Positions 226 to 45,834 of a DNA stretch of 64,000 nucleotides are shown piece after piece. The stretch covers positions 4,584 through 68,583 of the forward strand of contig CAYXVY010000201.1 in NCBI GenBank assembly GCA_964468745.1. Reading direction: 5' to 3'. The stretch's first letter is position 1. Every line of letters begins with the position of its first letter. The position numbers and the translations under genes were made by a program. A model generated the notes under the pieces. It did no database searches and had not been told where the DNA came from. It saw only the letters and a list, made by a program, of their open reading frames with translations. The DNA is from an uncultured Planctomycetales bacterium (GTDB taxonomy: Bacteria; Planctomycetota; MHYJ01; JACPRB01).

Positions 226-2133
226 TCAACGCGCGAACAGGACGACCTTGTTGCGCCCGCCGTTCTTCGCCTGGTACAGAGCCTCGTCCGCATAGCGCAC
301 GAGAGTCGAGTGCGTGTCTCCAGCGCCGAGTTCGGCGACGCCGAGGCTCACCGTGCACGGAATCGTCCGTCCGTCGAACATGAAGTGCTCCTGTTCGATC
401 GCCGCGCGAATCTGCTCCGCGACCCCCATCGTGGCCGCCGCCGTTCGGCCCGGCAGATAGGCCACGAATTCCTCACCGCCGTACCGCCCGACCATACCGC
501 CCAGACGCAGGACGTGGTCTTTCACGATTCGCGCCGCCTGGCTGAGAACGACGTCCCCGCCCGCGTGGCCGAATTCGGTGTTCTTTTGGCGGAAATGGTC
601 CAAGTCGAACATGAGCACCGTCAGCGGCGCTTTCTGCTGGCGGTGCGCCTCGACTTCCTCCTCGAGCCGCGCGAAGAAGAATTGGCGCGTGAAGAGCTGC
701 GTGAGGCCGTCGATCGTCGCCTTCTCGAAGAAGCGCGCGTTTTGCAGGGATACGCCGACTTGCGCGGCGAAGATCGTCACGAGTTCCTGATCATCTTCGT
801 CGAACGCCCGGCGGTGACGGCGGTCGGTCACGCATAGTACGCCGACGGGTTTCGATTCGCCCCGCAACCCCTCTCTCCGCGCGACGATCGGCACCACCAT
901 ATACGCGCGCGCCTCATAGGGACGTCCCGGCGTATCTGCATCCGTCGCACGGAGGGCCACATTATTCGCGAACGCGAGCCCCGCGACCCCGTCGCCCGGT
1001 TTGATCGCGATCGATTCGGCCAGCGGCTTCTGCAAATGCGTCGAATGAGCGATGCGCAGCACGGCGGCGGATTCGTCGAGCAGCATGAGCGTTGCCTTCG
1101 AGCAGTCGAAGATGCGTCCGAGGCTCTCGACCGCCTCGCGGACGATCAGCTCGCGCGAGAGGAAGGAACTGATGCGGCGGGACGTCTCGCTCAATCTGAT
1201 CAGCTTCTGACTGCGCTCCGTCTGCCGTTCGTAGCTCAGGACATTTTCGATCGCCAGCGCGCCTTGCGTCGCGATGCCGCCAAGCAGCTGAAGGTCCGGC
1301 GGCGTGTAGTTCTTGAGCGGGTTCAGGGTGTCGGCGTGAATCGCGCCGAGGATGCGGTCTTGCTTGACGATCGGGGCGCACATCGCGGACTGGATGTTCT
1401 GCTCGAGGATGCTCTGGCCGCCGATGAATCGCTTGTCCGCCGCGGCATTGCGCGTGATGATCCCTTCGCGCTTTTCGATCGCCTCGTTGATGATCGTGTA
1501 GCTCACCTTAGTGAAGCCGTCCGCCTCGCTGCGCGCCGTCAGACGCTTGCCGGCTACCCGGAGATGGCCGATCTCGTCGTAGAGCAGGATGAATACCCTA
1601 TCGGGACCGAAGACGTCGGAGATGATCGTGATCAGCCCGTCGAGGAGGTCCTCGAGATTGAGCGTCGCGTTCAGCGTCGAGGAGACCCGATAAAACGTCT
1701 CGAGGTGCGTGGCGATGCGGTCGGACTTCCGAAGCGCGTCGAGCATCAGGTGGGGATCGCTTGACATCTTGACGCGCGACTCTATGACCGACTTGCCGAG
1801 CTTTGCTTCCAGCGCGTCGTCCGCGACGTAGTCATGCGGCAGAGCCGGCGTCTCGTCGCTGAAGAGGAGCGAGAGGGGTCCGATCGTGAGAATGTCGCCG
1901 TGGCGCAGTGCCTCTTCGGTGACGTCGCGGCTGTTGACCGTCAGCGCGGCCCGGGGTTCCGCGCGGGAGAGCCGGTATTCGCCGTCGCGGTACTTGATCA
2001 CCGCGTGGGTGGGCTGGACGCCGGGCTCGTCCAGGATGATCGAGTTCTGCGCGTCGCTGCCTATCATGCTCGTTGAGGAGAGCAGCAATGCTGTTCCCAT
2101 CTGCTGACCATCGATGAAGACGATTTGTGCCAC
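226..2133 (-). CDS. FHA-GAF-GAF-GGDEF diguanylate cyclase
   Basis: N-terminal FHA-like segment (GDILTIGPLSLLF), two GAF-like regions, C-terminal RYGGEEF GGDEF signature. Confidence 0.85.
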   Translation of the reverse strand: MAQIVFIDGQQMGTALLLSSTSMIGSDAQNSIILDEPGVQPTHAVIKYRDGEYRLSRAEPRAALTVNSRDVTEEALRHGDILTIGPLSLLFSDETPALPHDYVADDALEAKLGKSVIESRVKMSSDPHLMLDALRKSDRIATHLETFYRVSSTLNATLNLEDLLDGLITIISDVFGPDRVFILLYDEIGHLRVAGKRLTARSEADGFTKVSYTIINEAIEKREGIITRNAAADKRFIGGQSILEQNIQSAMCAPIVKQDRILGAIHADTLNPLKNYTPPDLQLLGGIATQGALAIENVLSYERQTERSQKLIRLSETSRRISSFLSRELIVREAVESLGRIFDCSKATLMLLDESAAVLRIAHSTHLQKPLAESIAIKPGDGVAGLAFANNVALRATDADTPGRPYEARAYMVVPIVARREGLRGESKPVGVLCVTDRRHRRAFDEDDQELVTIFAAQVGVSLQNARFFEKATIDGLTQLFTRQFFFARLEEEVEAHRQQKAPLTVLMFDLDHFRQKNTEFGHAGGDVVLSQAARIVKDHVLRLGGMVGRYGGEEFVAYLPGRTAAATMGVAEQIRAAIEQEHFMFDGRTIPCTVSLGVAELGAGDTHSTLVRYADEALYQAKNGGRNKVVLFAR

Positions 2134-7180: not shown

Positions 7181-7379
7181 TGGTGAGCCCCTCCAACGAT
7201 CGACCCTGTTGGCACCGCACCCGACATCGTCCTTGCATATCCATTTGCGAAAGGGCCCGCGACTTCTTGAGAAATCTTCACGACCAAAACAATTTCGATG
7301 CAATGTGTCACTTCGGAGTTGGCTTTTCTGTGCGGACGCTATGAGAATGAGGGCGCGCATGCACGAACTTGAAACGCGG

Positions 7380-8105
7380 ATGGGAGGATCGGCAGAGAAC
7401 TTCCCGAACACGACGTGGGCGTCCCTCTTTTCGATGACAGACGCGGCGTCGGCCGCGGCGCGACAGGAGGCGTTGAGCAAGATCGTCGGGCGGTATTGGC
7501 GGCCCGTCTACGCCTACGTGCGCGCCTCCGCGGGGAAGCCCGTCGAAGACGCGAAGGATCTCACGCAGGCGTTCTTCTGCCACATGATCGAGGACGACAT
7601 GTTCGCGAAGTACGTCCGCGAGCGCGGGCGGTTTCGCGACTACCTCAAAGGCGCCTTGCGCAATTTCCTCGCGGAATCGTACCGTTCAAGCTCGGCGCTG
7701 AAGCGCGGCGGCGGCCGTGCGGTCGTTCCGCTCGACACGGCCCAGATGGAAACGGAGGCGTTCGGCCGGCAGCTGCGGGAGGCGAATCCTGAGGAGATGT
7801 TCGACCGTCAGTGGGCGCGCGACCTGCTCATGGAGGCGCTGCAGGACCTGCGCCGCCAGCTCGAGGGCGAGGGACGGCAGGACCAGTGGCGCGTGTACGA
7901 GACGATCGAACTCTCAAGCGAGAGCCCCGTGCCGAGCTACGAGGACATCTCGAAGCGCTTCGCGATTTCGACGCACGAAGTGAAGAACGCGCTGTTCGCG
8001 GTGCGCGGCCGGCTGCACCGCATCCTCCGCGAGAAAATCTCGTCGATCGTGACGTCGGAGCGCGAGCTGCGCGACGAGATGAAACACCTGTTCGGGAGCA
8101 GCTGA
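7380..8105 (+). CDS. ECF-like sigma-70 family factor (kinase-associated type)
   Basis: conserved N-terminus MGGSAENFPNTTW shared by three paralogs; sigma region 2 YWRPVYAYV...DLTQAFF; region 4-like C-terminus. Confidence 0.7.
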   Translation: MGGSAENFPNTTWASLFSMTDAASAAARQEALSKIVGRYWRPVYAYVRASAGKPVEDAKDLTQAFFCHMIEDDMFAKYVRERGRFRDYLKGALRNFLAESYRSSSALKRGGGRAVVPLDTAQMETEAFGRQLREANPEEMFDRQWARDLLMEALQDLRRQLEGEGRQDQWRVYETIELSSESPVPSYEDISKRFAISTHEVKNALFAVRGRLHRILREKISSIVTSERELRDEMKHLFGSS

Positions 8106-8107
8106 CC

Positions 8108-10162
8108 GTGATCCCGGAGGATTTCGTCGAGCGTGCGAAGCGCGGACTTGTTGCGCAGTCGCACCAGCGCGTCGGCGAACTCGCCGTGTCGCGCGGCTGG
8201 ATCACGCGTGACGATCTCGCGAAGCACCTCCAGAGCGAGCCGTACGGCCGGGCGGAATCGCTGGTCGAGCGCGGCCTGCTCTCGCAGGATCAGCTGAAGG
8301 ACCTTTTCGAGGCCGTCGATCAGGGCGCTCCCACGGAACTGGGCGATCGATACGAGATCATCCGTCGCATCGGATCCGGCGCGACGTCCGACATCTTCGA
8401 GGCGCGCGACCGCGTGCTCGGACGCCACGTCGCGCTGAAGCGCATCCACGGTGACTACGTCGAGATCACCGAGCGCAGCCGGCGCGAGGCGGAGGCGACG
8501 GCGCGGTTGTCGCACCCGGGGATCGTCACGCTGCATGACTTCATCGAGCGCGATGGCCAGTTTCTGCTCGTCATGGAACTCGTCCGCGGGCACACGCTCA
8601 CGGAAGTTCTGCGAGAGAAGGTCGACTTTGCGCGGTCGGCCGCGATCCTCGAAAAAGTCGCGCGCGCCGTCCACTACGCCCACGAGCGTGGGATCATCCA
8701 CCGCGACCTCAAGCCGAACAACATCCTCATAGGGGAGGACGGCGAGCCGAAAGTCGCCGACTTCGGACTCGCGCGGCTGGTTGACTACAGCGATTTTACG
8801 AATGACGGCATCGTGCTCGGCACGCCGTTTTATATGGCGCCCGAGCAGGCGTCGGGGCAGAAGGACGCGATTTCGCCGCGCACGGACGTGTATGCGCTCG
8901 GCGCGGTGCTCTACGAAGTGCTCGCGGGCCATCCGCCGTTCTCCGACGTGGATGAGTTGCGCGCGATCGATTTGATCATCCAGGTCGAGCCGGTAGCGCC
9001 CAGCCAGCTGCGCAAGGGAGTGCCGCACGAGCTGGAAACGGTGATGCTTACGGCGATGCAGAAGGAGCCGGGCGCGCGATACGCGTCTGCGCTGGAATTC
9101 GCGGAGGAGCTGTCTCGCTGGCAGCGCGGGCAGCCCGTCACCGCGCAGGCGCCGAGTCCGCCGCCGCGCGTTTCGCGCGCCATCTGGCGTCGGCTTGGCG
9201 TGCACATGCCGTCGGCCGCGGCGCGTCGCATCGCTCGGGTGAAAGCGCGAGGCGCGGAGCCGGCGCGAATCCCGCAGCGTATCGAGCCGCTCGAGGCGAA
9301 CATGCGCGAGGCGATCGCGCTGCTCGAGGGGGCGCACGCGATCCTCGAGCGCGTCTCGCAGAGTTTCTACATGAAGGGCGCACGTGCGGACGACGGCGGG
9401 AGCCGCCTTGAAGCAGCCGAAGCGCTCATCGCGCAAGTGATAGCGCGGCTGCCGAATCTCGCGTCCGCATACGTGTTGCAGGGCCGCGTGCAGGGGATTC
9501 GCGGCGCGTTCGACGATGCGGAGGATTCCTTCCGCGATGCGCTCGTGCTGGATCCGGACCTCGCCACGGCCCACTACCAGCTCGGACGCCTGCTGGTCAT
9601 CCGTTCGATCCTCTCGATCGGCGGACCGCGGACCGACGTCCCGGAGGCGGCGCGGGAACTGGAGGTTGCGCGCGCGGGAGCGCCGACGTCGCCGCTTCAG
9701 AGGCAATTTGTCGACGCGCTGCTCGCGTTCGCTCACGGAAACAGGGACGAGGCGGTGCGGCAGGCGACGGTCGGGACCGAGCTGTTCGACGGCGAGCCCG
9801 GCGTCGAGGAATTTCATTGGCTGATCGGTGTGGCGGACGTGCGGCCGCCTGCGCGCCTCGCCGCGTTCGAACGGGCGCTCGACATCCGGCCGCGCTATCC
9901 GCTGGCGCAATTGTGTCGCGGCGTGCTGCGCGGTGCGATGGGAGACGTGAGGCGCGCGATGGCGGATGTCGAGTCAGCGCAGAAATTGAGTCCGTTGCTC
10001 GTCGAGGCGTGGTACTGCCGGGGAGTCCTTCGGGCGCAGGGGAAGGATGCGAAGGGAGCGCGTGCGGACTTCGCGCGGGCCCTCGAGCTCATGCGCGACG
10101 ACTCGCCGCACCGGGCTACGGTCGAGGAGCGTCTGGCGCAGTCGGGTGCGCGAGGGTCGTAA
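8108..10162 (+). CDS. Ser/Thr protein kinase with N-terminal tandem MshEN-like motifs and C-terminal TPR repeats
   Basis: GTG start 3 nt after the sigma stop; RVGELAVSRGWITRDDLAKHLQ and RAESLVERGLLSQDQLKDLF motifs; IIHRDLKPNNIL, DFGLAR, APE kinase motifs; TPR-like C-terminal region. Confidence 0.75.
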   Translation: MIPEDFVERAKRGLVAQSHQRVGELAVSRGWITRDDLAKHLQSEPYGRAESLVERGLLSQDQLKDLFEAVDQGAPTELGDRYEIIRRIGSGATSDIFEARDRVLGRHVALKRIHGDYVEITERSRREAEATARLSHPGIVTLHDFIERDGQFLLVMELVRGHTLTEVLREKVDFARSAAILEKVARAVHYAHERGIIHRDLKPNNILIGEDGEPKVADFGLARLVDYSDFTNDGIVLGTPFYMAPEQASGQKDAISPRTDVYALGAVLYEVLAGHPPFSDVDELRAIDLIIQVEPVAPSQLRKGVPHELETVMLTAMQKEPGARYASALEFAEELSRWQRGQPVTAQAPSPPPRVSRAIWRRLGVHMPSAAARRIARVKARGAEPARIPQRIEPLEANMREAIALLEGAHAILERVSQSFYMKGARADDGGSRLEAAEALIAQVIARLPNLASAYVLQGRVQGIRGAFDDAEDSFRDALVLDPDLATAHYQLGRLLVIRSILSIGGPRTDVPEAARELEVARAGAPTSPLQRQFVDALLAFAHGNRDEAVRQATVGTELFDGEPGVEEFHWLIGVADVRPPARLAAFERALDIRPRYPLAQLCRGVLRGAMGDVRRAMADVESAQKLSPLLVEAWYCRGVLRAQGKDAKGARADFARALELMRDDSPHRATVEERLAQSGARGS

Positions 10163-21877: not shown

Positions 21878-24721
21878 CTATTCCTGCTGTTTGGCCAGCA
21901 GGGTGTCGATCTGCGCCCTGAGGGCCTCTCGCAGGGGCCACTGGGGGGGCGCGACGTCGAGGCAGGTGCGGAAATCGTCGATGGCTCCCTTGAAGTCTCC
22001 CGTGGCCTGCCGGACCATGCCGCGATTGTGGTACGGCTCCGGGCGTTGCGGATACTGCCGCACCGACTCTTCGGCGTCGGCCATCGCGCCCGGAAAATCC
22101 CGTGTCGTGGCCTTGAGGGCCGTGCGGTTGACGCGCGCGGGGAAGAACCGCGGGTTGAGCTCGAGCGCACGATCGTAGTCCTGCATGGCGCCGACCGGAT
22201 CGTTGCGCTGGCGCTTGAGGTCGGCGCGGCGGCAGTGCGTCGCGGGATCCGTCGGATTGAGCAGGATCGCCTGCGAGTAGTCGTCGAGGGCACGCTTCCA
22301 TTGTCCGCGCGCCTCGTAGGTCTCGCCGCGCTTGAGGTGCGGCGCCGGATTCGCCGGCATGATGCCGATGGCGCTGGAGAAATCCTCGAGGGCGCCGTCG
22401 AGATCGCGGCGCGCCGCGCGCAGGGCGCCGCGATTGAAGTAAGCGAGCGCGCAATGGACGTTGATCCGGATCGCCTCGCCGTAGTCCGCCATCGCGGCGT
22501 CCTGCTCGCCGAGCGACTGCCGCGCGTTGCCTCTATTCACGTACGCGAGCGCGAGCTTGGGATCCTTCGCCATCGCGGCGTTGGCGTCGTCGATCGCGCC
22601 CTGCAGATCGCCCGATAGGGCTTTCGCGAAAGCCCTGTTGCAGAGCGCGCCGGCGTCGTCCGGCCGCATGCTCATGTACTGCTCGATGTCGGCGATGCCC
22701 CCCTTCGGATCGCCCGACTGGGCGCGCGCGAAGCCGCGGTTGTTGTAGGCCGGCGCGAAGCGCGGCGCGAGACGCAGCGTGGCGGTGTATTCCGCGATCG
22801 CGTCCGCCTGGCGGCCGCGGGCGATCCACGCGTTGCCGCGCAGGAATCGCGCGCGCGCGTAGTGGGGACGCAGCTTGAGCGCCTGTCCGAAATCGTCCGG
22901 CTCTCCGCGGGCCATGCCGCGCAGGAGCCAGAATTCCTCGCACCCGAGACGACCTGAGAACGTCTTGATGGCGTCATCGCTCAGCCGAACAACCTCGTCG
23001 CGCCGCAGCTGCGCGAGCGCGCGATACACTGCCAGCAGCGACCGGTCGGCATCCTCCGCGGCGTCGGGCCGCCTCGTGGCCGACGCGAGATGGCGCGCGG
23101 CGGTGTCCAAGTGCTGCATGACGCGTTCGTCGGGCGTGAGCGTGTCGTGCATCCGCTGGACGAACGCGTCCATCGCGCGCTCCTGGTACAGCCGTGCGAG
23201 ATGGTAGTGCGCCCCCGAATCGTTGGGGCTGCACCGTTCCGCCGCGCGGAGCGCCCGCTCCGCGGCGTCGAGGTCCCCGAGCATGTGACGCCCGATGCCC
23301 AGCGTGACCCACGCGTGCGAATCCTCGGCGCCTCCCCCCTCCCGCACGATCGCGTCCAGTTCGTCGCACGCTTTCTTGACGCGCGCCAGCTCGGCGAAAA
23401 TCGCGTCGCCTTCGACGTGGAACCACGGACGTGCACCGCGGATGACGGCTTCGATCGGCCGCACGAGTTGCTCCGCCCGCAGCCGGCGCTCGGCCTCGCC
23501 CGCGCGCGCGAAACTCCAGATCGAGGCGCCGATGGCGACGATCAGAACGGCGGCGGTGGCGGTGACCCGCCTGCGCACTGAGAACCAGCGGCTCAGCTTG
23601 CGGACCACGCCCGGCGCCTGCGCATAGACGGGCTCGCCGGCGAGGTAGCGCAGCAGCTCCTCTGAGAACTCCTCCGCGTTCACGTAGCGCCGGGACGGAA
23701 CCGGGTCGAGCGCCTTCAGGCACACCGTCTCAAGCTCCACCGAGACGCGCGGATTGAGATTGCGAGGGCGCTCCGGCGGACCTGCGAGGATCTTGTTGAA
23801 GACCTCGATAGGGTGGGCACCGGTATGAGGTGGCCGGCCGACCAGCATCTCGTAGAGGATCGCCCCGAGCGCATAGACGTCGGTTCGAGCGGTCACCTGG
23901 TCGATGCCGCTTTGTACCTGTTCCGGAGCCATGTACGGCGGCGTGCCGACCACGAATCCCGTCTCGGTCACGCGCGCCTCGTTTTCCTGCAGGAACGCCA
24001 GACTGAAATCGGCGACCTTCGGCTCACCCATCTCCGTGACGATGATGTTCGCGGGCTTGAGGTCGCGATGGATGATGCCGTTCTGATGCGCGTAGTGAAC
24101 CGCGCGCGAGACTGTCGCGAGGAGGCGGATCATGGACGGAAGCGCCCGTCGCGCCTGCGGCATCAACTCCGTCAGCGTCTTGCCCTTCACCAACTCCATC
24201 ACGAGGTACATGTGGCCGTCCTCCTCGCACGCGTCGTGCAGCGTGACGAGGTTCGGGTGCGCGAGGCGCGCCGCGGCCGTGCACTCGCGATAGAAGCGCT
24301 GACGCATCGTCTCAAAACTCTTGGCGCGCGGGCGCAGGACCTTGAGCGCGACCTCGCGGTGGAGCTCGCGGTCGAGGGCGCGGTAGACGATGGCCACGCC
24401 CCCTTCGCCGAGCCGCTCGATGATCTCGTAGCGGCGGAATCTCGGAAGCTCCAGCTTGGCGGTGTCGTAGAGCGCCTCCGACACCTCCGGCGCCAGCCCG
24501 CGCGGGACGGCGCCGTTCAAGTACTGGCGATGGCGCTCCTCGCGGCGCAGCTCTTCAAGCGCTTTGTCGTCGATCAGTCCGCGCTCGCGCATGAGATCCG
24601 CCAGGAGGACCGATTCGCCGCGGGCGAGCCGCTCCTGCTGCTCGCGAAGGCACTCTTGCACGGCCTCCTGGGGGACAATGCCGCGTTCGACGGCCAGACG
24701 CCCGACTATCGTGTCTGCCAC
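21878..24721 (-). CDS. Ser/Thr protein kinase, MshEN-like N-terminus, TM helix, periplasmic TPR repeats
   Basis: GRLAVERGIVPQEAVQECL and LADLMRERGLIDDKALEEL motifs; IIHRDLKPANII, DFSLA, APE kinase motifs; TM helix VTATAAVLIVAIGASIW; many TPR repeats. Confidence 0.8.
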   Translation of the reverse strand: MADTIVGRLAVERGIVPQEAVQECLREQQERLARGESVLLADLMRERGLIDDKALEELRREERHRQYLNGAVPRGLAPEVSEALYDTAKLELPRFRRYEIIERLGEGGVAIVYRALDRELHREVALKVLRPRAKSFETMRQRFYRECTAAARLAHPNLVTLHDACEEDGHMYLVMELVKGKTLTELMPQARRALPSMIRLLATVSRAVHYAHQNGIIHRDLKPANIIVTEMGEPKVADFSLAFLQENEARVTETGFVVGTPPYMAPEQVQSGIDQVTARTDVYALGAILYEMLVGRPPHTGAHPIEVFNKILAGPPERPRNLNPRVSVELETVCLKALDPVPSRRYVNAEEFSEELLRYLAGEPVYAQAPGVVRKLSRWFSVRRRVTATAAVLIVAIGASIWSFARAGEAERRLRAEQLVRPIEAVIRGARPWFHVEGDAIFAELARVKKACDELDAIVREGGGAEDSHAWVTLGIGRHMLGDLDAAERALRAAERCSPNDSGAHYHLARLYQERAMDAFVQRMHDTLTPDERVMQHLDTAARHLASATRRPDAAEDADRSLLAVYRALAQLRRDEVVRLSDDAIKTFSGRLGCEEFWLLRGMARGEPDDFGQALKLRPHYARARFLRGNAWIARGRQADAIAEYTATLRLAPRFAPAYNNRGFARAQSGDPKGGIADIEQYMSMRPDDAGALCNRAFAKALSGDLQGAIDDANAAMAKDPKLALAYVNRGNARQSLGEQDAAMADYGEAIRINVHCALAYFNRGALRAARRDLDGALEDFSSAIGIMPANPAPHLKRGETYEARGQWKRALDDYSQAILLNPTDPATHCRRADLKRQRNDPVGAMQDYDRALELNPRFFPARVNRTALKATTRDFPGAMADAEESVRQYPQRPEPYHNRGMVRQATGDFKGAIDDFRTCLDVAPPQWPLREALRAQIDTLLAKQQE

Positions 24722-24757
24722 TTCACCTACTGTACGACGGTGGGACTCGGGTCCCGT

Positions 24758-25477
24758 CTACTCCAGCCACGAAAAGAGTCCGCGCAGCTCGTCGGCGAGT
24801 TCTTCGGCGGACCGCACGGTCTCGCGCACCTGCGCCTTGAGAGCCTCCCTGAACGCCTCGCGCGCGACACGGAGATAATTGCTGACGCTGTCCTCCGTGA
24901 TTCCCAGTTGTTTCGCGACGGCCGTGTACGTAGCCTGTCCGTCCCCCTCGAGATCGTAGAGGCGGAAGACCTCGAAGCACTTCATGCGATCCTGCTTGTG
25001 AAACGTCTCGCGGACCGACTCCACGGCCGCGCGGATCACCGCGGCCCGCCATTCGCGCTCGAACACCTCTTCGGGACCGAATTCGCGGGCGGCCGCGAGG
25101 TTCTCCTCCGCGCCCAGCTCCGCCTGGTCCAGCGTCAGGTGCGCGATCTTCCCGCCCCTCCGCACCGCGTGATCGATCCGCCGCTGGTCGGCGACAAAGT
25201 TGCGGACGCTTGTCTTCAGGAAGTTGCGGAAGCGTCCGCGCTCCTCGTCCGCCTTCTCGAGAAAGCCGGATTCCATCAGATGGAGAAAGAAGGCCTGCGT
25301 CAGGTCCATCGACGCGGTCGCGTCGTGATTGCAGGAGGTGCGCACGTACCAGTACACGGGCTTCCAGTAGCGTTCGATGAGCGTGTTGAGTGCGGTCTGG
25401 GAGTCCTTCTCCTCGCCGCGCGCGTGCGAGACGAGGGTCCACAGCGTCGATGGAAACGCTACCGGTGCGGTGTCCAC
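24758..25477 (-). CDS. ECF-like sigma-70 family factor (paralog 2)
   Basis: MDTAPVAFPSTLW N-terminus, YWKPVYWYV..DLTQAFF region 2, HTH-like region 4. Confidence 0.7.
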   Translation of the reverse strand: MDTAPVAFPSTLWTLVSHARGEEKDSQTALNTLIERYWKPVYWYVRTSCNHDATASMDLTQAFFLHLMESGFLEKADEERGRFRNFLKTSVRNFVADQRRIDHAVRRGGKIAHLTLDQAELGAEENLAAAREFGPEEVFEREWRAAVIRAAVESVRETFHKQDRMKCFEVFRLYDLEGDGQATYTAVAKQLGITEDSVSNYLRVAREAFREALKAQVRETVRSAEELADELRGLFSWLE

Positions 25478-28983: not shown

Positions 28984-30246
28984 CTAGTCGAGGCTGTCGA
29001 GCAGCGCGCGCAGCTTGCGCGCCCGTGTCGGATGGCGCAGCTTCTCGATCGCCTTGAGTTCGATCTGGCGTACGCGCTCGCGACTCAGATTGTAGATCTT
29101 CGCGATGTCTTCGAGCGTGTACGAATCGCCGTGGCCGAGCCCGAATCGCAGACGAACCACCTCGCGTTCCCGTGGCGAGAGCGTGTCGAGCACGCGCGTC
29201 ATGCCCTCGAGCAGCGAGCGCGCGTCGGCCAGAGGCTCCTCGCGGGGAGCCGCGACAGTCTCGGCGAGGGAAGACTCGTCGCCCTGCACGTGGTCGAGGC
29301 TGAGGCAATGGACTGCCGTGCGGAAGACCCGCTGCGCCTGCGCGCGCGAGATGTCGAGCTTCGCGGCGAGTTCGTACGGCGTCGGGTCGCGTCCCTCCCG
29401 GTCGCGGAACTTTTTCACGGCGTCGCGGATCATCTGCGGCGCCTCGGCGAGATTGACGGGCTGCCGGATGAGGCGAAATTTGCCGGCGAGGGCGCGCGTC
29501 ATCGACTGCTTGATCCACCAGAACGCGTACGAGTGGAACTGGCACACCTCGCGTGCGTCGTATTTCTCCGTCGCGTAGAGGAGGCCGACGTTGCCTTCCT
29601 GGATCAGCTCGAGGATCTGCGACGGGTGGCGCGCGACCTGCTTGGCGACGTGAACAACGAGGCGCAGATTTGCGGACACGAGTGCGTTGCGAACGACGAC
29701 GAACGCGCGATGAACGGCCAGAGCGCGATGCAGGCGGTAGTTGCGGCCGCGTTCGTGGCGAGTCCCTTCGTGCTCGACTGCGCGGAGCAGCCGGCGCAGG
29801 ATGCCGATGCGCAGCTTCAACTTGAGCGCGAGGTCGCGGCCTTCCGCATAAACTTCTCTGCCACCGTCTTCGACGATTTCGCGCAGGCGGGCGATGACCG
29901 GCGCCAGGAGTCGAAGATGTGCGTGGAAGTCGCGCTCCGACAGCCCCCCGATGTTGAAGGCCTTCATGGCCGGCCTGCGGCCGCGCAGGACGTCGGCGAC
30001 GAGCGCGATCGCGTGCGGCCAGAGTTCGGGCACGGCACTGGCCGCGTTGATGAACATCGCGCGGCGGCGTGCCATCGTCCGTGCGAGATGCCGCTCCTGC
30101 TCCTTCTCGAGCAAAGGCGTGCGTGCGGCTTCGACCAGATAGCGCCCGATTGGATCCGATGCGGCTCCGGCACCGCGAGCGGGTGCGTCCGATTCGGCTG
30201 TCCCCTGCTGCCCCCAGTCGCCTTGCGCAGTTTCTTTGAATGTCAT
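28984..30246 (-). CDS. sigma-70 family alternative sigma factor (regions 2-4)
   Basis: ELIQEGNVGLLYATEKYD region 2 and TLEDIAKIYNLSRERVRQIELKAIEKLR region 4; start taken at MTFKETAQ. Confidence 0.7.
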   Translation of the reverse strand: MTFKETAQGDWGQQGTAESDAPARGAGAASDPIGRYLVEAARTPLLEKEQERHLARTMARRRAMFINAASAVPELWPHAIALVADVLRGRRPAMKAFNIGGLSERDFHAHLRLLAPVIARLREIVEDGGREVYAEGRDLALKLKLRIGILRRLLRAVEHEGTRHERGRNYRLHRALAVHRAFVVVRNALVSANLRLVVHVAKQVARHPSQILELIQEGNVGLLYATEKYDAREVCQFHSYAFWWIKQSMTRALAGKFRLIRQPVNLAEAPQMIRDAVKKFRDREGRDPTPYELAAKLDISRAQAQRVFRTAVHCLSLDHVQGDESSLAETVAAPREEPLADARSLLEGMTRVLDTLSPREREVVRLRFGLGHGDSYTLEDIAKIYNLSRERVRQIELKAIEKLRHPTRARKLRALLDSLD

Positions 30247-30377
30247 CGTGGTCTGCCTCCAGCAACTGAACTGGTAGCACAGTATCAAACGACGTGCCAC
30301 TGTTATGGAATGCAAGGCGTTTGAGTGCAGCATGTTGCGTGGTGGCATACACGCGGCCGTGAAGAAACACCGATACT

Positions 30378-32534
<2,157 letters not shown>

Positions 32535-32632: not shown

Positions 32633-33472
32633 TTAGGCGCTGCGCTCGTGGAGGCGGTACCGGTCGAGCAGCCCCATTTTCGAGCTGTAATCCGAGGGCA
32701 GCGATTGGAGGATGCGCGCAACCTCGTCTGCCATCTTGCCTGCGGTCGGGTAGCTCGTCCTCGCGAAATTTTGGAAGTCGGCGTCGGCAACCGGGTGAAC
32801 GCGTCGCAGCGGCGGGATCTCGCCAGCCGCGATCAGCGCGAACGCCTTGCCGCTCAGCAGCGACAGGAAGAGGAGGTGCAGCGCGTCGATGTCCGTGCCC
32901 TTGTCCGCCACAGGGGGTGCCGTGGCGGGGTCAAAATGGCGCCTGAGCTGGCCGACGGCGAAATCGACGATGTGCGGATGCCCGTTCGAGGAGAGGATCA
33001 CGTTCGGCGGCGCGATGCCGCCGTGGACGATGTCGCGCTCGTGGCTGAACTCGATCGCCCGTGCGACTTCGTAAAACGTCTGCATCGCGGGAAGCGGCTC
33101 GAGCGTCGTCTTTTCAAGCGGGTCTCCATGCACGTAGTCGCGCACCGTGAAGTAGCCGCCGCCGACCGTGGAGAGCTTGTGATACGTGACGATCACCGGA
33201 TGCTGCAGTGCGGCAAGCGGTTTCAAATGGGCGCAGACGGCCGCGACGGTTGAAGGATCGTTCGTGCGGCCCAGCACGCGCAGGACGAGGGTGTGAGGCC
33301 GCGTGTTGTCGGTCGCCTCCATCACGCCGGGTCCGAGCGTGCGCAGGAGGGTGTACTTGCCGAACTGGTTGGCAGCGCCCTCCGGGGTGCGTTTGGCAGG
33401 CCCGGAAGGCTTCTCCGGCCCCGCCAGCATGCGCTGGAGTTTCGCGACGTTTATGTCCGACAGGTCCGCCAT
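32633..33472 (-). CDS. kinase-fold pseudokinase translationally coupled to the ECF-like sigma
   Basis: kinase-like fold with Gly-loop LGPGVMEA, VAIK replaced by LVLRV, catalytic loop HGGIAPPNV (no Asp or Lys), DFG replaced by DFA; ATGA overlap with the sigma stop at 33472. Confidence 0.65.
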   Translation of the reverse strand: MADLSDINVAKLQRMLAGPEKPSGPAKRTPEGAANQFGKYTLLRTLGPGVMEATDNTRPHTLVLRVLGRTNDPSTVAAVCAHLKPLAALQHPVIVTYHKLSTVGGGYFTVRDYVHGDPLEKTTLEPLPAMQTFYEVARAIEFSHERDIVHGGIAPPNVILSSNGHPHIVDFAVGQLRRHFDPATAPPVADKGTDIDALHLLFLSLLSGKAFALIAAGEIPPLRRVHPVADADFQNFARTSYPTAGKMADEVARILQSLPSDYSSKMGLLDRYRLHERSA

Positions 33473-34194
33473 CAGGGCTTCGGCTCGCCGAGGAGATCCG
33501 ACATCTCCTCGCGATACTCCTCCTCCGAAAGAGTGTACTCCTTCACGCGGTCGCTGATGTGTTCGCGCAGCCGGCGGCGCGCGTCGGCCAGATAGTTCGT
33601 GACGTCCCAGATCTTCAGCCCGAGCTCTTTCGCGACGGACTCGTACGAGACTACGGCGTCGGCCGACAGCTGGTAGCGTTCGAACACTTTCATGTACATC
33701 TCTTTGCCTTCCGCCGCATACGAGCGCCGCAGCGCGTCGATGGCGTGCGTGAAGATGGTCCGCACCCACTCCGAACGATAGAGGTCCTCGGGCGTCCCAT
33801 CCGCACTCACCGACACTTCGCCGTCCTCGTCCGCGGCCATGTCGAGCGACACGATCTTCTGTCCTCCGCCTCGTCGCTGTGCCTGCTGTTCGGCGTATTG
33901 ATTGCGGAGGTAATTCTCGAGGGCGGTGCGAAGGAGGGCGTGGAAACGGCCGCGTTCGCGGTCGGCGCCGGCGAGGAATTCCTTCTCAATGATGTTGGTG
34001 ATGAACGACTGGGTGAGGTCTTTGGCGTCCTCGTTCGAGCGGTTCCACTTGCGTCGGACGTAGACGTAGATCGGACGCCAGTAGAGGGCGAGGAGCCGCT
34101 GGAGAGCCTCGCGGCGTTCAGGACCCTCGAAACGCCCAGCTCGAATGATGGCGGACCAAGGGGTGGCAGGGAACCGCTCGGGGCCCTCTCCCAT
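33472..34194 (-). CDS. ECF-like sigma-70 family factor (paralog 3)
   Basis: MGEGPERFPATPW N-terminus, YWRPIYVYV...DLTQSF region 2; start placed by alignment to the two paralogs. Confidence 0.7.
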   Translation of the reverse strand: MGEGPERFPATPWSAIIRAGRFEGPERREALQRLLALYWRPIYVYVRRKWNRSNEDAKDLTQSFITNIIEKEFLAGADRERGRFHALLRTALENYLRNQYAEQQAQRRGGGQKIVSLDMAADEDGEVSVSADGTPEDLYRSEWVRTIFTHAIDALRRSYAAEGKEMYMKVFERYQLSADAVVSYESVAKELGLKIWDVTNYLADARRRLREHISDRVKEYTLSEEEYREEMSDLLGEPKP

Positions 34195-34396
34195 CTCCGT
34201 ATCCTGTTGAGGCTGCCGGTCGGTCACGTGTCCTCCGTGTCCCATTATACACACGCCGTGCGAGTGGCGTTCAGGCCATAAAGTGCTGCCCGGAATTTTT
34301 GAAATTTGATTAAATATGGCTGGTCCGGGCGGTGTAGAGCATACGGACACGGGAATCACGGGAATCTGGTGCGGTGGGCTCTCTAGCTTGGAGGTT

Positions 34397-35968
34397 ATGG
34401 TGATGCGCATCCCTAAGTTTCCAGGGCGGCTGGCGTTCAGCGCGGCGCTCGTGGCTGTCTTCCTTGTGATGGGGGTCAGCAGACCTGAGGCTCAGGCCAC
34501 GGTCATTGACTACTCATATGCGTATCATGGCCCCGGCTGGTCGTACGTCACGCGCATCTGGACCAACGGGGTCGACATCGACACGTATCGCAGTTCCGCA
34601 GGGACATCGGGGACGATAGCGCATCTTGACGCGCATCCGAGCATCTTCAACCCGAGCGCCATCTACGGTATCGTCCCGGGGACGGTCGGCGTGAAGCGCA
34701 TCGGCCCCGGCAGCGGCGTCCCCGTCAATACGTACCTCACGACGGGCTCCGCGCAGGGCGCGTGCTACGTCAACTCGCCGCCGCTCAACCCGCACTACTT
34801 CGTGGTCGGCAAGTACGCGTCCGGCGGGTCGCTCGAATTCTTCGACGTCCATAATCAGAACGTTTCCGAGATCTTCGTCCATATCCCCACGGGTCACGAG
34901 CCGCAGGACTGCGCGTTCGCGAAGGCGACGACGACAGCCTTCAGCCCGGCCAACCCGGCCTTCCGCTGGTTCTGGATCGATAAGGCCCCCACGGGCTCGA
35001 CGGCGGAGACCTTGTACTACCTTGACCTGCGCACTGCCGACGTGCAGCTCTCAGGCGGCGCCGTCCAGAATCCGTGGAACCCGACGCCCCAGATCTCGAC
35101 CTACGGCCCCCCGTTCTCGAGCCTGGGGACGCAGCTCGGCGGCGTCGGCCCTAGCGGCGTATCGTGGACCGGCCGCTTCATCACCATGACGGGTATCAGT
35201 GGCCTCGATGACGACAGCCATCGCCTTCAGACGTGGGTTAACGCGGCCGGCCGGCCGTTCCTGATCCACGCCCGCAACGTCCTCATCTCGCCCCTTCCTC
35301 CGGTCTACGGCGACGACGTCACCGTGTACGCCGCCGATGCGGCCTCGGGCGTCCTGCCCACGACCTTCACTACGACGGTGACGACATCCGGCATCCCGAC
35401 GGTGGCCCACGACATCAAGGTCATCGGGAACTTCCTGTTCGTAACGGCGGGAACGAACGGTTCGGCGAAGGGCGGCGACGGGGTTTACTCGTACTTCATC
35501 AATCCCGGCGGCACGCTCACAGCGCGCGGATCGCTTCCGTTCCTCGGTGCGACGGGCATCTGGTCGAACTTCGTCAACGACAGGCTGTACATCGGCGCCG
35601 ACGACAGCAGCGCCAGTTACGGGGTGTGCCCCGTCGATCCGCTGACGAGCGGCCTGACGACCGACACGGGCACGAATCCGCTTCTGGGCCTCTCGACACA
35701 CCTCGCGCTCTCCATCGCGGAGCAGCAGCTCATCACGCCTCCCGATCGCAAGTGGGTCGGCAACGACGGCATCGGCGTCCGCGAGGACTCGAGCTCGTTC
35801 CCCGGCACCGCCTTCGGCAATCCAAACGGCAGGTCGCGCAACGGCGGCGCATGCTCCGGCGCGCTCCTCGGTGAAGAGAACGGCGGCGGCCTCGGCGCTC
35901 TTGCCTTCATGGTCCTGCTCGTCGGCTTGGCCGGCGCTACCCTGCGTGAAGCAGGCAGAAAGACCTAG
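34397..35968 (+). CDS. secreted protein, paralog B, MYXO-CTERM-like sorting signal
   Basis: signal peptide MRIPKFPGRLAFSAALVAVFLVMG; C-terminus GGACSGALLGEENGGG...FMVLLVGLAGATLREAGRKT; collinear similarity to 5564..7180. Confidence 0.75.
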   Translation: MVMRIPKFPGRLAFSAALVAVFLVMGVSRPEAQATVIDYSYAYHGPGWSYVTRIWTNGVDIDTYRSSAGTSGTIAHLDAHPSIFNPSAIYGIVPGTVGVKRIGPGSGVPVNTYLTTGSAQGACYVNSPPLNPHYFVVGKYASGGSLEFFDVHNQNVSEIFVHIPTGHEPQDCAFAKATTTAFSPANPAFRWFWIDKAPTGSTAETLYYLDLRTADVQLSGGAVQNPWNPTPQISTYGPPFSSLGTQLGGVGPSGVSWTGRFITMTGISGLDDDSHRLQTWVNAAGRPFLIHARNVLISPLPPVYGDDVTVYAADAASGVLPTTFTTTVTTSGIPTVAHDIKVIGNFLFVTAGTNGSAKGGDGVYSYFINPGGTLTARGSLPFLGATGIWSNFVNDRLYIGADDSSASYGVCPVDPLTSGLTTDTGTNPLLGLSTHLALSIAEQQLITPPDRKWVGNDGIGVREDSSSFPGTAFGNPNGRSRNGGACSGALLGEENGGGLGALAFMVLLVGLAGATLREAGRKT

Positions 35969-43104: not shown

Positions 43105-45834
43105 ATGTCGAACACCCGCGTGTGGGGGGACTACGAAGTTTTCATGGATCAGGTCCTCGGCCGCGGCGGCATGGGCGCGGTGTACCGCGGGCGGCAGGTG
43201 TCGGTCGACCGCCCGGTCGCGATCAAGGTCCTCAAAAAGGAACTCGCGAACGGCGACTTCATCAAGCGGTTCCAGCGCGAGGCCACGCTGCTGGCGCGGC
43301 TCATCGACTCGCACATCGTGCAGGTGTTCGGCGCCGGAGAAGGCGAGGGCGAGTACTTCTTCGCGATGGAGTACGTCGAGGGTCAGGATCTTTCGAGCAT
43401 GATCCGCTCGGGCAAGCAGTTCGATGCGCGCGAGGTGCTCGACATCGCGATCCAGACGGGGCTGGCGCTCAAGGCCGCGTGGCGCCTCAAGATCGTGCAT
43501 CGCGACATCAAGCCATCGAACATCATCATGACGCGCGACGGTCAGGCCAAAGTCATGGACTTCGGCCTCGCGAAAAATCCCGACATGGAGCTGACGCGCA
43601 CTGAACTCAGCATGGGCACGGCGAAGTACATCTCGCCGGAGCAGGCGACGGGCGGCGTGGTGGACATCCGGGCCGACCTGTACTCGCTCGGGTGCGTGCT
43701 GTACGAAATCGCGACGGGCAGCGTGCCGTTCGTGGGCGACAGCCCGACGTCGGTCATCTATCAGCACGTGCACAAGGCGCCCGCGTCGCCGAGCAAGCTC
43801 AACCCCGGCGTGCCGGAGGAGCTGTCGGCTCTCATCCTGCGAGCCCTCGCGAAGCGGGCGGACGAGCGCTACCAGTCGCCCGACGATCTCATCTCCGACG
43901 CGAAGGCCATCCAGGAAGGCGTGTCGCCGGACGAGCGGACGATGCTGCTGGCGCAGACGCAGGCGTCGCGCTCCAGCGCGCAGACAATGCCGATGCACGA
44001 CGGCGATCCGACGCTGCTCCGTCAACAGCAGGGCGTCCAGCAGAGTGACGTGCAGCCGTCGTCCAGCAAGGCGCCCCTGATCGCGAGTCTGTTCGTGGCG
44101 CTGCTGATCGTCGGCGGCGTCGGCTGGTTCATCGTGAAAAGCCTCGGCGTGGAGGATCCGAATCTCGCGGGCGGAGGCAGCACGGTTCAGCCTCCCCCTC
44201 CGACGACCGACGGTCCGCCGCTCACGACGACGCAGCCTCCTCCACCGACGACGGGCACGACGCCGGTGACCACCACGCAGCCGCCTCCGCCGACGACAGG
44301 TGAGACGCCGGTGACGACCGCCCAGCCTCCCCCGCCGACGACCGAGGTTCCGCCCGTGACCACGACGCAACCTCCGCCGCCCACGACCACGACCCCTCCG
44401 GTCGATACGTTCGCCGATCGTCTCGAGCAGGCGCAGACGCTGCTCAAAGCGGAGAAGTGGCAGGAGGCCCGCGACGTGCTCAGCGCGCTCGCGAAGCAGA
44501 TGCCGTCGGATGACAGGCGCCTTTCCGAGGTGCGGCTCAACGGCGTGCTCTGCGACTTCCAACTCGCGATCCTGAACGCGAAAGGCACTGGCAATCGCGA
44601 CCTCCAGATCCAGAACTACGAGGCGGCGCTCGCGCTGCTGCCCGAGGGCGATTCACGCCGGGCCGAAACGGAGCGGACGATCCGGCTGCTCAAGTACGGA
44701 AAGCACTACGACGCCGGCAAGGAACGGATGGGCGGGGATTGGGAGCGCGCGGCGGAGCAGTTTGCGCAGGCACAGCAGTACGCGGACGGAGCGCCGAAGG
44801 CCGAGGCGATCGAGATGCAGGAATTCTGCGTGAAGTACGCGCGCGCGATGGACGTGCTCTACACGAAGCAAAATGTCGACGAGGCGCTGCCGCTCTTCAA
44901 GGCGCTCCTGTCGAAGAGCTTCGGCTTCGCGAACGATTTGCAGACGCGCATCACGACGTGCGAGAACGCAATCGCCGACCGTGTGCGGGTCGAGCGCGAC
45001 GCCAAATTGGCGAAATTCAGGGAGGCATTCGACCGCGGGCGCGATGCGTGGAAACGCGGCAAGTGGGCCGAGGCGAAGGAGGCGCTCGACGCGGCGGCCA
45101 AGCTGGCGGTCGATCCCGCGACCGACGAGTTCATCGCGTTGCACAAACAGGCCACAGCGGCCACAAACGTTCCGGCCGGCATGGTATTTATCCCGGCGGT
45201 GAAGTTCACGTTCGGCAACGGCGGCGCGGAAAGCGTGACCGGGCCGAAGCAGGATCGCGAGCTGTCCGCGTATTGCATCGACTTGCGGGAGGTGACCGTC
45301 AGCGAGTACCGCAAGTTCCTCGCGGCAAACGTCGGACACTCGAAGTGCCCCGCCGGCGAGACTGACGAAAAGAAGCAGGGCACCCATGAGCCGCTCAACT
45401 GGGCGATGCAGCGCGACGATGCCAAGTCGGCGACGGGCGTCGACTGGTACGACGCCGCCGCCTACGCGGCGTGGGCGGGGAAGAAGCTGCCGACGGAGTT
45501 CCAGTGGGAACGCGCGGCCGGCACGGACTTATTCGGGGGCGAGCGTCGCGCGTACCCGTGGGGGAACGAGTACGGGCGGGGCGAGGGAACGAGTCCGGTC
45601 GGGTGCGAGGGGATGGGGAACGGTACGCTCGAGTGGTGCGCGGATTGGTTCGACCGCTACGCCGGAGGCACCGCGAAGAACGGGGACTTTGGCGAGACGA
45701 AAAAGGCGCTGCGGGGCGGGTACCAGGACGAGTCAAGCGCCAGGGAAGAGACGCGCGTGGTGCACCGCAAAGCGCTGCGGCCGGACTCGCGCCGTTCGTA
45801 TGTCGGATTCCGGTGCGTCCAGCCGGTGGAGTAG
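43105..45834 (+). CDS. Ser/Thr protein kinase with TM helix, Pro/Thr-rich repeats, TPR-like region and C-terminal FGE-sulfatase (SUMF1-like) domain
   Basis: VHRDIKPSNI, DFGLAK, SPE kinase motifs; TM helix LIASLFVALLIVGGVGWFIV; five 15-aa QPPPPTT units; C-terminal FGE-type fold motifs (WAGKKLPTEFQWERAA, RGG, GFRCV). Confidence 0.8.
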   Translation: MSNTRVWGDYEVFMDQVLGRGGMGAVYRGRQVSVDRPVAIKVLKKELANGDFIKRFQREATLLARLIDSHIVQVFGAGEGEGEYFFAMEYVEGQDLSSMIRSGKQFDAREVLDIAIQTGLALKAAWRLKIVHRDIKPSNIIMTRDGQAKVMDFGLAKNPDMELTRTELSMGTAKYISPEQATGGVVDIRADLYSLGCVLYEIATGSVPFVGDSPTSVIYQHVHKAPASPSKLNPGVPEELSALILRALAKRADERYQSPDDLISDAKAIQEGVSPDERTMLLAQTQASRSSAQTMPMHDGDPTLLRQQQGVQQSDVQPSSSKAPLIASLFVALLIVGGVGWFIVKSLGVEDPNLAGGGSTVQPPPPTTDGPPLTTTQPPPPTTGTTPVTTTQPPPPTTGETPVTTAQPPPPTTEVPPVTTTQPPPPTTTTPPVDTFADRLEQAQTLLKAEKWQEARDVLSALAKQMPSDDRRLSEVRLNGVLCDFQLAILNAKGTGNRDLQIQNYEAALALLPEGDSRRAETERTIRLLKYGKHYDAGKERMGGDWERAAEQFAQAQQYADGAPKAEAIEMQEFCVKYARAMDVLYTKQNVDEALPLFKALLSKSFGFANDLQTRITTCENAIADRVRVERDAKLAKFREAFDRGRDAWKRGKWAEAKEALDAAAKLAVDPATDEFIALHKQATAATNVPAGMVFIPAVKFTFGNGGAESVTGPKQDRELSAYCIDLREVTVSEYRKFLAANVGHSKCPAGETDEKKQGTHEPLNWAMQRDDAKSATGVDWYDAAAYAAWAGKKLPTEFQWERAAGTDLFGGERRAYPWGNEYGRGEGTSPVGCEGMGNGTLEWCADWFDRYAGGTAKNGDFGETKKALRGGYQDESSAREETRVVHRKALRPDSRRSYVGFRCVQPVE
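44185..44406 (+). repeat. 45-bp x5 in-frame tandem repeat (QPPPPTTGxxPVTT)
   Basis: tandem nucleotide repeats (acgcagcctcctccaccgacgacg...) inside the kinase gene. Confidence 0.7.

Follow-up and report, generated by a model that had tools for sequence, protein, structure and literature searches.

A Predicted Pseudokinase Conserved Beside an ECF-Type Sigma Factor in Uncultured Bacteria

Introduction

What can a protein of the kinase fold do beside a sigma factor once it has, to all appearances, lost the means to phosphorylate? The question is raised by a locus from an uncultured Planctomycetales bacterium (assembly GCA_964468745.1, contig CAYXVY010000201.1). Within the stretch of 64,000 nucleotides analysed here (positions 4,584 to 68,583 of the contig, hereafter the window), the gene of an extracytoplasmic function (ECF)-type sigma factor, sigma-3, adjoins the gene of a Hanks-fold protein with degenerate catalytic motifs, both on the minus strand:

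33472..34227, minus strand: ECF-type sigma gene (sigma-3), 251 aa from GTG 34227, identified by TIGR02937, a family profile, an AlphaFold2 (AF2) model, and orthologs
32633..33472, minus strand: gene of a soluble Hanks-fold pseudokinase of 279 aa, identified by Pfam Pkinase, a match to PknA, an AF2 model with Foldseek, the lack of a C-terminal anchor, and the ratio of nonsynonymous to synonymous substitution rates (dN/dS)

Several ECF groups are linked to Ser/Thr kinases, and a mechanism has been worked out for ECF43 alone (PMC8999054). The locus described here represents this known module of sigma factor and Ser/Thr kinase in a new form, in which the kinase has turned into a conserved pseudokinase. 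An earlier note on this DNA, made from the sequence, had proposed that the conserved role of the kinase domain in such modules is binding, for example by sequestering the sigma factor, rather than phosphotransfer. The reading preferred here, to which we assign a probability of roughly 0.5, is that the pseudokinase would act as a non-catalytic, stoichiometric partner of sigma-3 that most likely holds it inactive.

Kinase Fold and Lost Catalytic Elements

The downstream protein, which begins MADLSDINV, has the clear protein-kinase fold that had been read from its sequence. It matches Pfam Pkinase (PF00069; E = 6.4e-9, 36 bits against a cut-off of 31.7), and its top sequence match in the PDB is Mycobacterium tuberculosis PknA (E = 1e-9). 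The AF2 model, made with nine homologs as input, is a complete bilobal kinase (predicted local distance difference test score, pLDDT, 78.6; predicted template modelling score, pTM, 0.74), for which Foldseek returns RIPK1, PknB, and PknA at E of ~1e-10 to 1e-11 and template modelling (TM) scores of ~0.6. To judge the state of the catalytic positions, the protein was aligned with PknA, with the active kinases of the window, and with 15 active relatives. The four motifs quoted in the earlier note (LGPGVMEA, LVLRV, HGGIAPPN, and DFA) are all present and align with the catalytic positions:

33314..33337, minus strand: degenerate Gly-rich loop LGPGVMEA, residues 46-53, with four residues deleted by alignment against GxGGMGxV
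33275..33289, minus strand: beta3 strand LVLRV, residues 62-66, aligned with VALKV, the VAIK Lys being replaced by Arg65
33002..33025, minus strand: catalytic loop HGGIAPPN, residues 150-157, aligned with HRDLKPxN, with the HRD Arg and Asp and the catalytic-loop Lys lost
32957..32965, minus strand: DFA in place of DFG, residues 170-172, with the deletion of the activation segment and APE directly after

Identical catalytic substitutions are carried by all members of the pseudokinase family described below. The four-residue deletion in the Gly loop (LGPG----VMEA) is common to every member, the position of the VAIK Lys is occupied by Arg or His throughout, and in the pseudokinase of the window the catalytic-loop Lys has become Ala while Asn157 is kept. 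Two further losses are added here to those already recorded. The alphaC Glu is replaced by His82, at a position that is variable among the relatives (H, E, D, or other), and the stretch from DFA to the alphaF Asp194 has lost the activation segment, GTxxYMAPE included, which leaves a gap of ~19 columns relative to the window's long kinases and of ~40-60 relative to the short sigma-coupled kinases introduced below. That every catalytic element had been replaced is true of the Gly loop, the Lys, and the HRD motif, but not of the two metal ligands, Asn157 of the catalytic loop and Asp170 of DFG, which are kept and are invariant across the family. No catalytic Lys or Asp conserved at a shifted position was found in alignments of the family (Asp147 is not conserved, being Gly in most relatives), and the alignment confirms the loss of the catalytic residues. 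On these motifs, the pseudokinase is predicted to be catalytically dead.

Neither an anti-sigma domain nor a zf-HC2/HxxxCxxC zinc motif was matched in the pseudokinase by Pfam or NCBIfam at E <= 1, and the same databases gave no match to HATPase_c (GHKL). The protein has no accessory domain and no C-terminal hydrophobic anchor; its kinase fold is flanked by two short motifs:

33416..33463, minus strand: N-terminal helix motif LSDxxVxKLQRMLAGP, residues 4-19, particular to sigma-coupled kinases
32651..32701, minus strand: C-terminal motif LPSDYSSKMGLLDRYRL, residues 258-274, corresponding to the juxtamembrane helix of active tail-anchored kinases

The AF2 model places a helix at residues 6-16 with low confidence (pLDDT ~50), and its confidence is also low over residues 267-279; modelled in this way, the two motifs would fit interaction motifs that fold on binding.

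Rarity, Co-Occurrence, and Selection

The family is rare. A word-based search of 5.8 billion proteins recovered nine homologs of 265-299 aa (42-100% identity), and a hidden Markov model scan of 1.84 billion cluster representatives (50% identity) recovered ~8 clusters with the full-length pseudokinase architecture, below which the matches are ordinary multi-domain kinases throughout. A scan of the GTDB species representatives with the pseudokinase alignment returned no relatives. Lineages were drawn from the contigs of the homologs, from three loci reached via sigma orthologs, and from six found in the metagenome scan, and together they make up ~12 distinct metagenomic lineages with a pseudokinase, one of them labelled Planctomycetota. 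Orthologs of sigma-3 are 57-81% identical; in each of the 12 lineages one of them, at 60-81% identity, is encoded directly upstream of the pseudokinase and in the same orientation.

Two of these loci share extended synteny with the window, on the divergent side through genes for an LPG synthase, DUF366, a HEAT protein, an amidase, and two unknown products, and on the other side through sigma, pseudokinase, a GAF-sigma54 activator, an RpoD-like sigma, and Mrp. One lineage (L006 1020-2601; L093 3-1015) has two tandem sigma-3-like genes ahead of the pseudokinase.

Within the window, sigma-3 belongs to one of three paralogous sigma modules, and in the other two the sigma gene is followed by a long active kinase of the Pkinase-TPR type:

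~7347-8102, plus strand: sigma-1, 36% identical to sigma-3, with its long Pkinase-TPR kinase at ~8100-10159 (plus strand)
24761-25477, minus strand: sigma-2, 33% identical to sigma-3, with its long Pkinase-TPR kinase at 21881-24721 (minus strand), the module spanning 21881-25477

The view that a dead kinase here fills the slot held by active kinases beside the paralogous sigmas is therefore borne out, and this arrangement is conserved in all 12 lineages. Rates of substitution were estimated by the Nei-Gojobori method on genes trimmed of the extension into the overlapping sigma frame, and dN/dS is 0.12-0.48 for the pseudokinase (0.15 at a synonymous rate, dS, of 0.31) and 0.13-0.27 for the sigma factor. 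The G+C content at third codon positions (GC3) of the pseudokinase gene is 0.85, which is typical for genes of its genome. The pseudokinase is under purifying selection.

Origin From Short Tail-Anchored Active Kinases

A scan with the sigma alignment of one genome per GTDB species recovered at least 475 relatives, mostly from Acidobacteriota and Planctomycetota, the nearest being from a Planctomycetota metagenome-assembled genome at 64% identity. Downstream partners were read at the best 80 of these at least 475 loci, where the sigma factors are ~40% identical. In 69 of the 80, the downstream gene encodes a short kinase (~300-365 aa) with HRDLKPxN and, in most, GxGGMG, whose start overlaps the sigma stop as ATGA in the majority of cases; the rest comprise one pseudokinase, four loci ended by a contig edge, and six without a resolved partner. 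A C-terminal hydrophobic tail anchor is found in 61 of 61 complete short active kinases and in no pseudokinase. The short active kinases (L014-L092) have DWG for DFG, and no extracytoplasmic sensor domain was present in any of the 61 complete ones. No experimental work on this kinase family was found in the literature.

Active and dead partners have the N-terminal helix motif in common (LSDxxLxxLRxxxxxP), and the C-terminal motif is found as P-VxAYRExxLER ahead of the anchor in active kinases and as LPSDYSSxVGLLERY in pseudokinases, which have also gained a Pro-rich linker. Because both terminal motifs are common to the two groups, the pseudokinase is a degenerate, de-anchored descendant of a short active kinase, namely of the C-tail-anchored Ser/Thr kinase found with this family of sigma factors in Acidobacteriota, Planctomycetota, and further phyla. 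By comparison of the aligned proteins, what was lost in this descent comprises the membrane anchor and the activation segment as well as the Gly loop and the catalytic Lys, Arg, Asp, and Lys; the N-terminal helix and the C-terminal juxtamembrane motif were kept. Since the partner kinases in 69 of 80 loci of the wider sigma family keep their catalytic motifs, phosphotransfer is clearly under selection there. That the module serves binding rather than phosphotransfer is thus a good reading for the pseudokinase clade, and it does not hold as the generalization offered in the earlier note. Within the clade, the partner has been kept under purifying selection beside the same sigma factor after the loss of catalysis and anchor, which argues that it has a function with no need of phosphotransfer.

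Sigma-3 as an ECF-Type Sigma Factor

Sigma-3 is a weak but real ECF-type (group 4) sigma factor with sigma2 and sigma4 only. It scores 45.6 bits against TIGR02937 (cut-off 42.9), and the Pfam sigma domains fall below their cut-offs, which marks it as a divergent member. In the PDB, a family profile built from 30 relatives finds M. tuberculosis SigE and AlgU. AF2 predicts an all-helical protein with sigma2 and sigma4, for which Foldseek returns ECF sigmas exclusively, but at E of ~1e-3 and TM scores of 0.25-0.3. The element most relevant to its control lies in region 2.2:

34009..34029, minus strand: sigma region 2.2 motif D67-A-K-D-L-T-Q73, the acidic DxxDxxQ core-binding motif, located by profile alignment

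In the family profile, 'sneDAkDLtQ' aligns with 'NQHDAEDLTQ' of M. tuberculosis SigE, and EDAKDLTQ is near-invariant in the 30 family members. Because EDAKDLTQ falls on the HDAEDLTQ of SigE, the canonical acidic sigma2.2 motif, which contacts the beta' subunit, is taken to be intact. By the logic established for ECF43, sigma-3 should therefore bind core RNA polymerase without being phosphorylated (PMC8999054, PMC13147305) and would need some other form of control.

Two ideas about this region were considered and rejected. DAKD is not a feature kept by sigma-3 and lost by kinase-coupled paralogs, being near-universal with active and dead partners alike and deviating, among the window's sigmas, in sigma-2 only. 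Nor is the Thr of DLTQ a credible phospho-acceptor, DLTQ being identical in M. tuberculosis SigE. Sigma-2 itself has 'ATASMDLTQ' where the family has 'EDAKDLTQ', so that the first acidic Asp is lost and a Thr and a Ser are gained, a change which by analogy may resemble the phospho-switch logic of ECF43.

Elsewhere in the protein, three Ser/Thr positions (38, 103, and 238 in 257-aa numbering) are at least 91% conserved in kinase-coupled sigmas and are lost in the pseudokinase clade, as would fit a loss of phospho-control. The Thr and Ser of the N-terminal FPxTxWS motif are still conserved in the clade. Two other features mark the family as a whole: the N-terminal extension DTxxG...FPxTxWS is widely conserved across it, and the linker between sigma2 and sigma4 contains an RGG motif, in most cases RGGG (R119-G121 in 251-aa numbering), that is invariant in 30 of 30 members, with active or dead partner.

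Organization and Expression of the Two-Gene Unit

The sigma gene (33472-34227) and the pseudokinase gene (32633-33472) meet at a shared base:

33470..33474, minus strand: gene junction TGATG, the sigma stop TGA (33474-33472) and the pseudokinase start ATG having base 33472 in common

An overlap of stop and start at 33472 had been noted before and stands; it was described as ATGA, and it instead reads cccTGATGgcg in context, a stop/start overlap of 1 nt. Among the orthologous loci, the spacing of the two genes ranges from a 4-nt overlap (ATGA) to a gap of 88 nt.

The beginning of the sigma gene also required revision. Whereas the earlier note began sigma-3 at ATG 34194 (240 aa), translation probably starts upstream, at GTG 34227, which is preceded by GGAGG at 4 nt; ATG 34245 (257 aa) is the other alternative. 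GTG 34227 is the likely start because the residues DRQPQQDTE before the Met of ATG 34194 are conserved among sigma orthologs, because that Met is replaced by Ile in two of them, and because this start agrees with NCBI's own call of 251 aa (P0011). A sequence element immediately upstream bears on the same choice:

34244..34250, minus strand: GTATAAT box, putative housekeeping-type -10 element of the operon, located by comparison of orthologous upstream regions

In 8 of 9 orthologous loci, the box is 7-16 nt 5' of the codon at which the sigma gene starts, with matching positions in L002, L005, L006, L008, L009, L011, and L013. In the window it overlaps ATG 34245, a further point in favour of GTG 34227. 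A scan of the locus for two-hexamer sigma-70 promoters and for terminators gave nothing useful, and the assignment is of a -10 element only. The position of the box suggests a leaderless or very short-leader mRNA, and its form suggests that the operon is transcribed in a housekeeping-type rather than an autoregulated manner, which would fit a post-translational control of sigma-3.

Proposed Function of the Pseudokinase

We propose that the two genes form an operon in which the 1-nt stop/start overlap would allow the pseudokinase to be made in step with the sigma factor. The pseudokinase would no longer phosphorylate but would serve as a stoichiometric, non-catalytic partner, docking on sigma-3 through the N- and C-terminal motifs that it has kept, and most likely keeping it inactive, in the manner of an anti-sigma factor, until released by another input, for which a ligand, a trans-acting kinase, or proteolysis are the candidates. 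No protein with a classical anti-sigma domain is encoded near the pair, and there is no anti-anti-sigma (STAS) gene near the pseudokinase. The parts of this proposal differ in strength. That the role is non-catalytic and directed at the sigma factor is somewhat the better-favoured view given the conservation of the pair, while the specifically inhibitory, anti-sigma version is tentative and on balance doubtful; direct binding, the direction of the effect, and the releasing signal are points that we infer. Bolder, and slightly more doubtful again, is the idea that the pseudokinase might represent a structurally new class of genuine anti-sigma factor. The hundreds of short tail-anchored kinases that accompany this sigma family would then be anti-sigma factors tethered to the membrane, which use phosphorylation to let go of their sigma, and the pseudokinase clade would be a naturally occurring 'kinase-dead' form with binding uncoupled from catalysis.

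Several observations weigh against this proposal. With the P+1 loop and activation segment deleted, the canonical substrate site is gone, and any binding of sigma-3 would therefore have to use other surfaces. The residues that replace the three lost Ser/Thr sites of the sigma factor are Ala, Cys, Lys, Arg, or Thr, and never the phosphomimetic Asp or Glu; a preferential loss of Ser/Thr in the clade was itself considered and rejected, the excess (3 of 7 Ser/Thr columns against 13 of 55 others) not being significant. A positive role would account for the co-occurrence of sigma and pseudokinase equally well. The invariant Asn157 and Asp170, together with the Arg at the VAIK position, may leave a small chance of ligand or metal binding. 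Finally, in one subclade an intact kinase (GSGGMG, HRDLKPAN, DFG, and APE) with an MshEN-like N-terminus adjoins the pseudokinase, which hints at cooperation with a real kinase:

L009 7702-10935 and L002 9641-12067: intact kinases beside the pseudokinase, with Pfam TPR repeats reported on the L009 kinase

The last point also speaks for the strongest of the rival explanations, in which the pseudokinase would be a positive adaptor or scaffold, presenting the sigma factor to a trans-acting Ser/Thr kinase or activating a kinase allosterically, so that sigma-3 is still phospho-regulated. Eukaryotic pseudokinase-kinase pairs work by such allosteric activation, and the Thr and Ser of FPxTxWS that are kept in the clade would suit it. 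Kinases that might take part are at hand, since the window holds FHA-domain regulators and three other active kinases, namely the two sigma-paired TPR kinases and one more:

43105-45831: a fourth kinase, active (the third with the two that are sigma-paired), with an FGE-sulfatase domain, following an FHA-GAF-sigma54 activator

No HRD-type active kinase, however, is found in the available flanks of nine other pseudokinase loci, the intact acidic sigma2.2 motif would not require an activating phosphate of the ECF43 type, and the three Ser/Thr positions of the kinase-coupled relatives are gone; on this balance the scaffold role is considered unlikely.

A less probable explanation is that the pseudokinase modulates other kinases, forming heterodimers with the paralogous active kinases or serving as a decoy, with its linkage to the sigma gene a matter of co-expression only. 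Several paralogous kinases are encoded within the same 64 kb, and roles as allosteric partner or competitive inhibitor are common for pseudokinases (bioRxiv 10.1101/2025.01.12.632604; PMC12599244). Two observations speak for a closer tie: in each of the 12 lineages the pseudokinase gene strictly adjoins one particular sigma ortholog, often at an overlapping stop and start, and the protein retains the N- and C-terminal motifs particular to sigma-coupled kinases. The modulator role appears improbable.

Slightly less again can be said for a non-canonical enzyme, which would bind a nucleotide or other ligand through Arg65, Asn157, and Asp170 and carry out atypical chemistry of the kind known from some 'pseudokinases,' for example AMPylation or glutamylation. 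The invariance of Asn157 and Asp170 favours it, and the conserved change of the VAIK Lys to Arg has been discussed for ActPs2 as possibly compatible with non-canonical ligand binding (bioRxiv 10.1101/2025.01.12.632604). Yet the Gly-rich loop is four residues shorter, the alphaC Glu is not conserved, the catalytic loop is without an acidic residue, the activation segment is deleted, and the kept Asn and Asp serve structural roles in the fold as well, so that such an activity is rated as a slender prospect. That the gene is a functionless relic of a decaying kinase, as the many lost catalytic elements and the rarity of the family might suggest, is excluded and in practice refuted by the data on selection and conservation, with intact full-length frames in ~12 lineages whose sigmas have diverged to 60% identity, low dN/dS, typical GC3, and many invariant positions.

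Neighbouring Genes and Recurrent Associations

Around the pair, two further regulatory genes follow the pseudokinase, and one gene diverges from sigma-3:

30381-32534, minus strand: GAF-GAF-sigma54 activator, immediately downstream of the pseudokinase
28987-30348, minus strand: 454-aa RpoD-like sigma with regions 1.2, 2, 3, and 4, next in order after the sigma54 activator
34316-35968, plus strand, with a probable start near 34397: divergent protein of ~520-550 aa with a signal peptide and no Pfam match, syntenic in L005, L010, and L011

The order of sigma54 activator and RpoD-like sigma is repeated in L010, and three classes of sigma-related regulators are thereby clustered. The divergent gene is a candidate target of sigma-3. 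Within the intergenic region at 34228-34400, GATTCCCGT occurs twice as a direct repeat, and there is an AT-rich ATTTAA box that L005 and L008 also have. An FHA-GAF-GAF-GGDEF protein is encoded near the sigma/pseudokinase pair in L002 (3710-5623) and L009 (1491-3461), and one is found 30 kb away from the pair in the window (229-2133, minus strand); this recurrence hints at a link between phospho-Thr reading and cyclic di-GMP signalling.

Significance

The locus amounts to a natural experiment on the control of kinase-linked sigma factors that have an intact acidic patch, a question for which the ECF43 mechanism provides the background (PMC8999054). The pair is a soluble and simple two-protein system in which a non-catalytic role can be tested, with the N-terminal helix and the C-terminal motif as candidate docking motifs. 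With it, the few conserved families of bacterial pseudokinases described so far, of which no published one is tied to transcription, are joined by one that is linked to a sigma factor. The family is rare and comes from uncultured bacteria, but it is still a clean system for the study of kinase-linked sigma control.

Comparison With Known Systems

The closest mechanistically understood systems are the pairs of ECF43 sigma factor and Hanks kinase, EcfP-PknT of Vibrio parahaemolyticus and EcfK-PknS of Xanthomonas citri (PMC8999054, PMC13147305, PMC7826278). ECF43 sigmas are without the acidic DAED, having QTTA or STTA instead, and phospho-Thr supplies the charge for binding of the beta' subunit (PMC8999054, PMC13147305). 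As in those pairs, an ECF-type sigma gene here adjoins a Hanks-fold gene with no classical anti-sigma factor, and the kinase-fold protein is the presumed regulator. The sigma-3 family, however, keeps the DAKD core-binding motif in place of the sigma2.2 change that defines ECF43, and for this reason sigma-3 is not ECF43-like; moreover, PknT and PknS are active receptor kinases, whereas the partner described here is soluble and predicted to have no capacity for phosphotransfer. Other published ECF groups with linked kinases are ECF59-62, 217, 267, and 283 (PMC7826278).

Described bacterial Hanks-type pseudokinases include ActPs1-3 (among them the MviN domain), GLW, DLHK, CP1, and DYD, as well as EssB/YukC and SidJ (PMC12599244; bioRxiv 10.1101/2025.01.12.632604). 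In the GLW family the GLW motif replaces HRD, DLHK keeps the HRD Asp, and ActPs1-3 and GLW lose the DFG Asp (PMC12599244; bioRxiv 10.1101/2025.01.12.632604). A full-text literature search returned no paper connecting a pseudokinase with an ECF sigma or anti-sigma system, and sigma factors are mentioned in neither of the two studies just cited (PMC12599244; bioRxiv 10.1101/2025.01.12.632604). The family resembles these pseudokinases in being a degraded kinase fold conserved as a family, and shares an activation-loop deletion with ActPs3/MviN and the Lys-to-Arg change with ActPs2. Judged by the published motif descriptions, its combination of Arg at VAIK, HG-x at HRD, and a kept DFG Asp fits none of the described families; it differs further in its taxa, in having no accessory domain and no anchor, and in its strict linkage to a sigma gene.

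The anti-sigma serine kinases SpoIIAB and RsbW are GHKL (histidine-kinase-like) ATPases that are catalytically active and work by partner switching. The likeness to them is one of concept, a protein of a kinase family that would control a sigma factor by binding; the pseudokinase is set apart by its Hanks-type fold, its predicted lack of activity, and the absence of a nearby STAS gene. Classical ECF anti-sigma factors (anti-sigma domain and zf-HC2, class I: RseA, RsiW, and ChrR) are likewise encoded directly downstream and co-translated, with a presumed 1:1 binding, but the pseudokinase has no anti-sigma domain or zinc motif and is a bilobal kinase, not a helical bundle. The fullest resemblance in gene and protein organization is to the wider sigma family itself, which has in common with this locus sigmas of ~40% identity, the N-terminal extension, DAKD, the RGGG linker, the gene order, and the tight coupling, along with the N-terminal helix and C-terminal juxtamembrane motif of the partner. 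In that wider family the partner retains GxGGMG, VALK, HRDLKPxN, DWG, APE, and a transmembrane tail, whereas in the pseudokinase only the Asn and the Asp of DFG/DWG have been kept.

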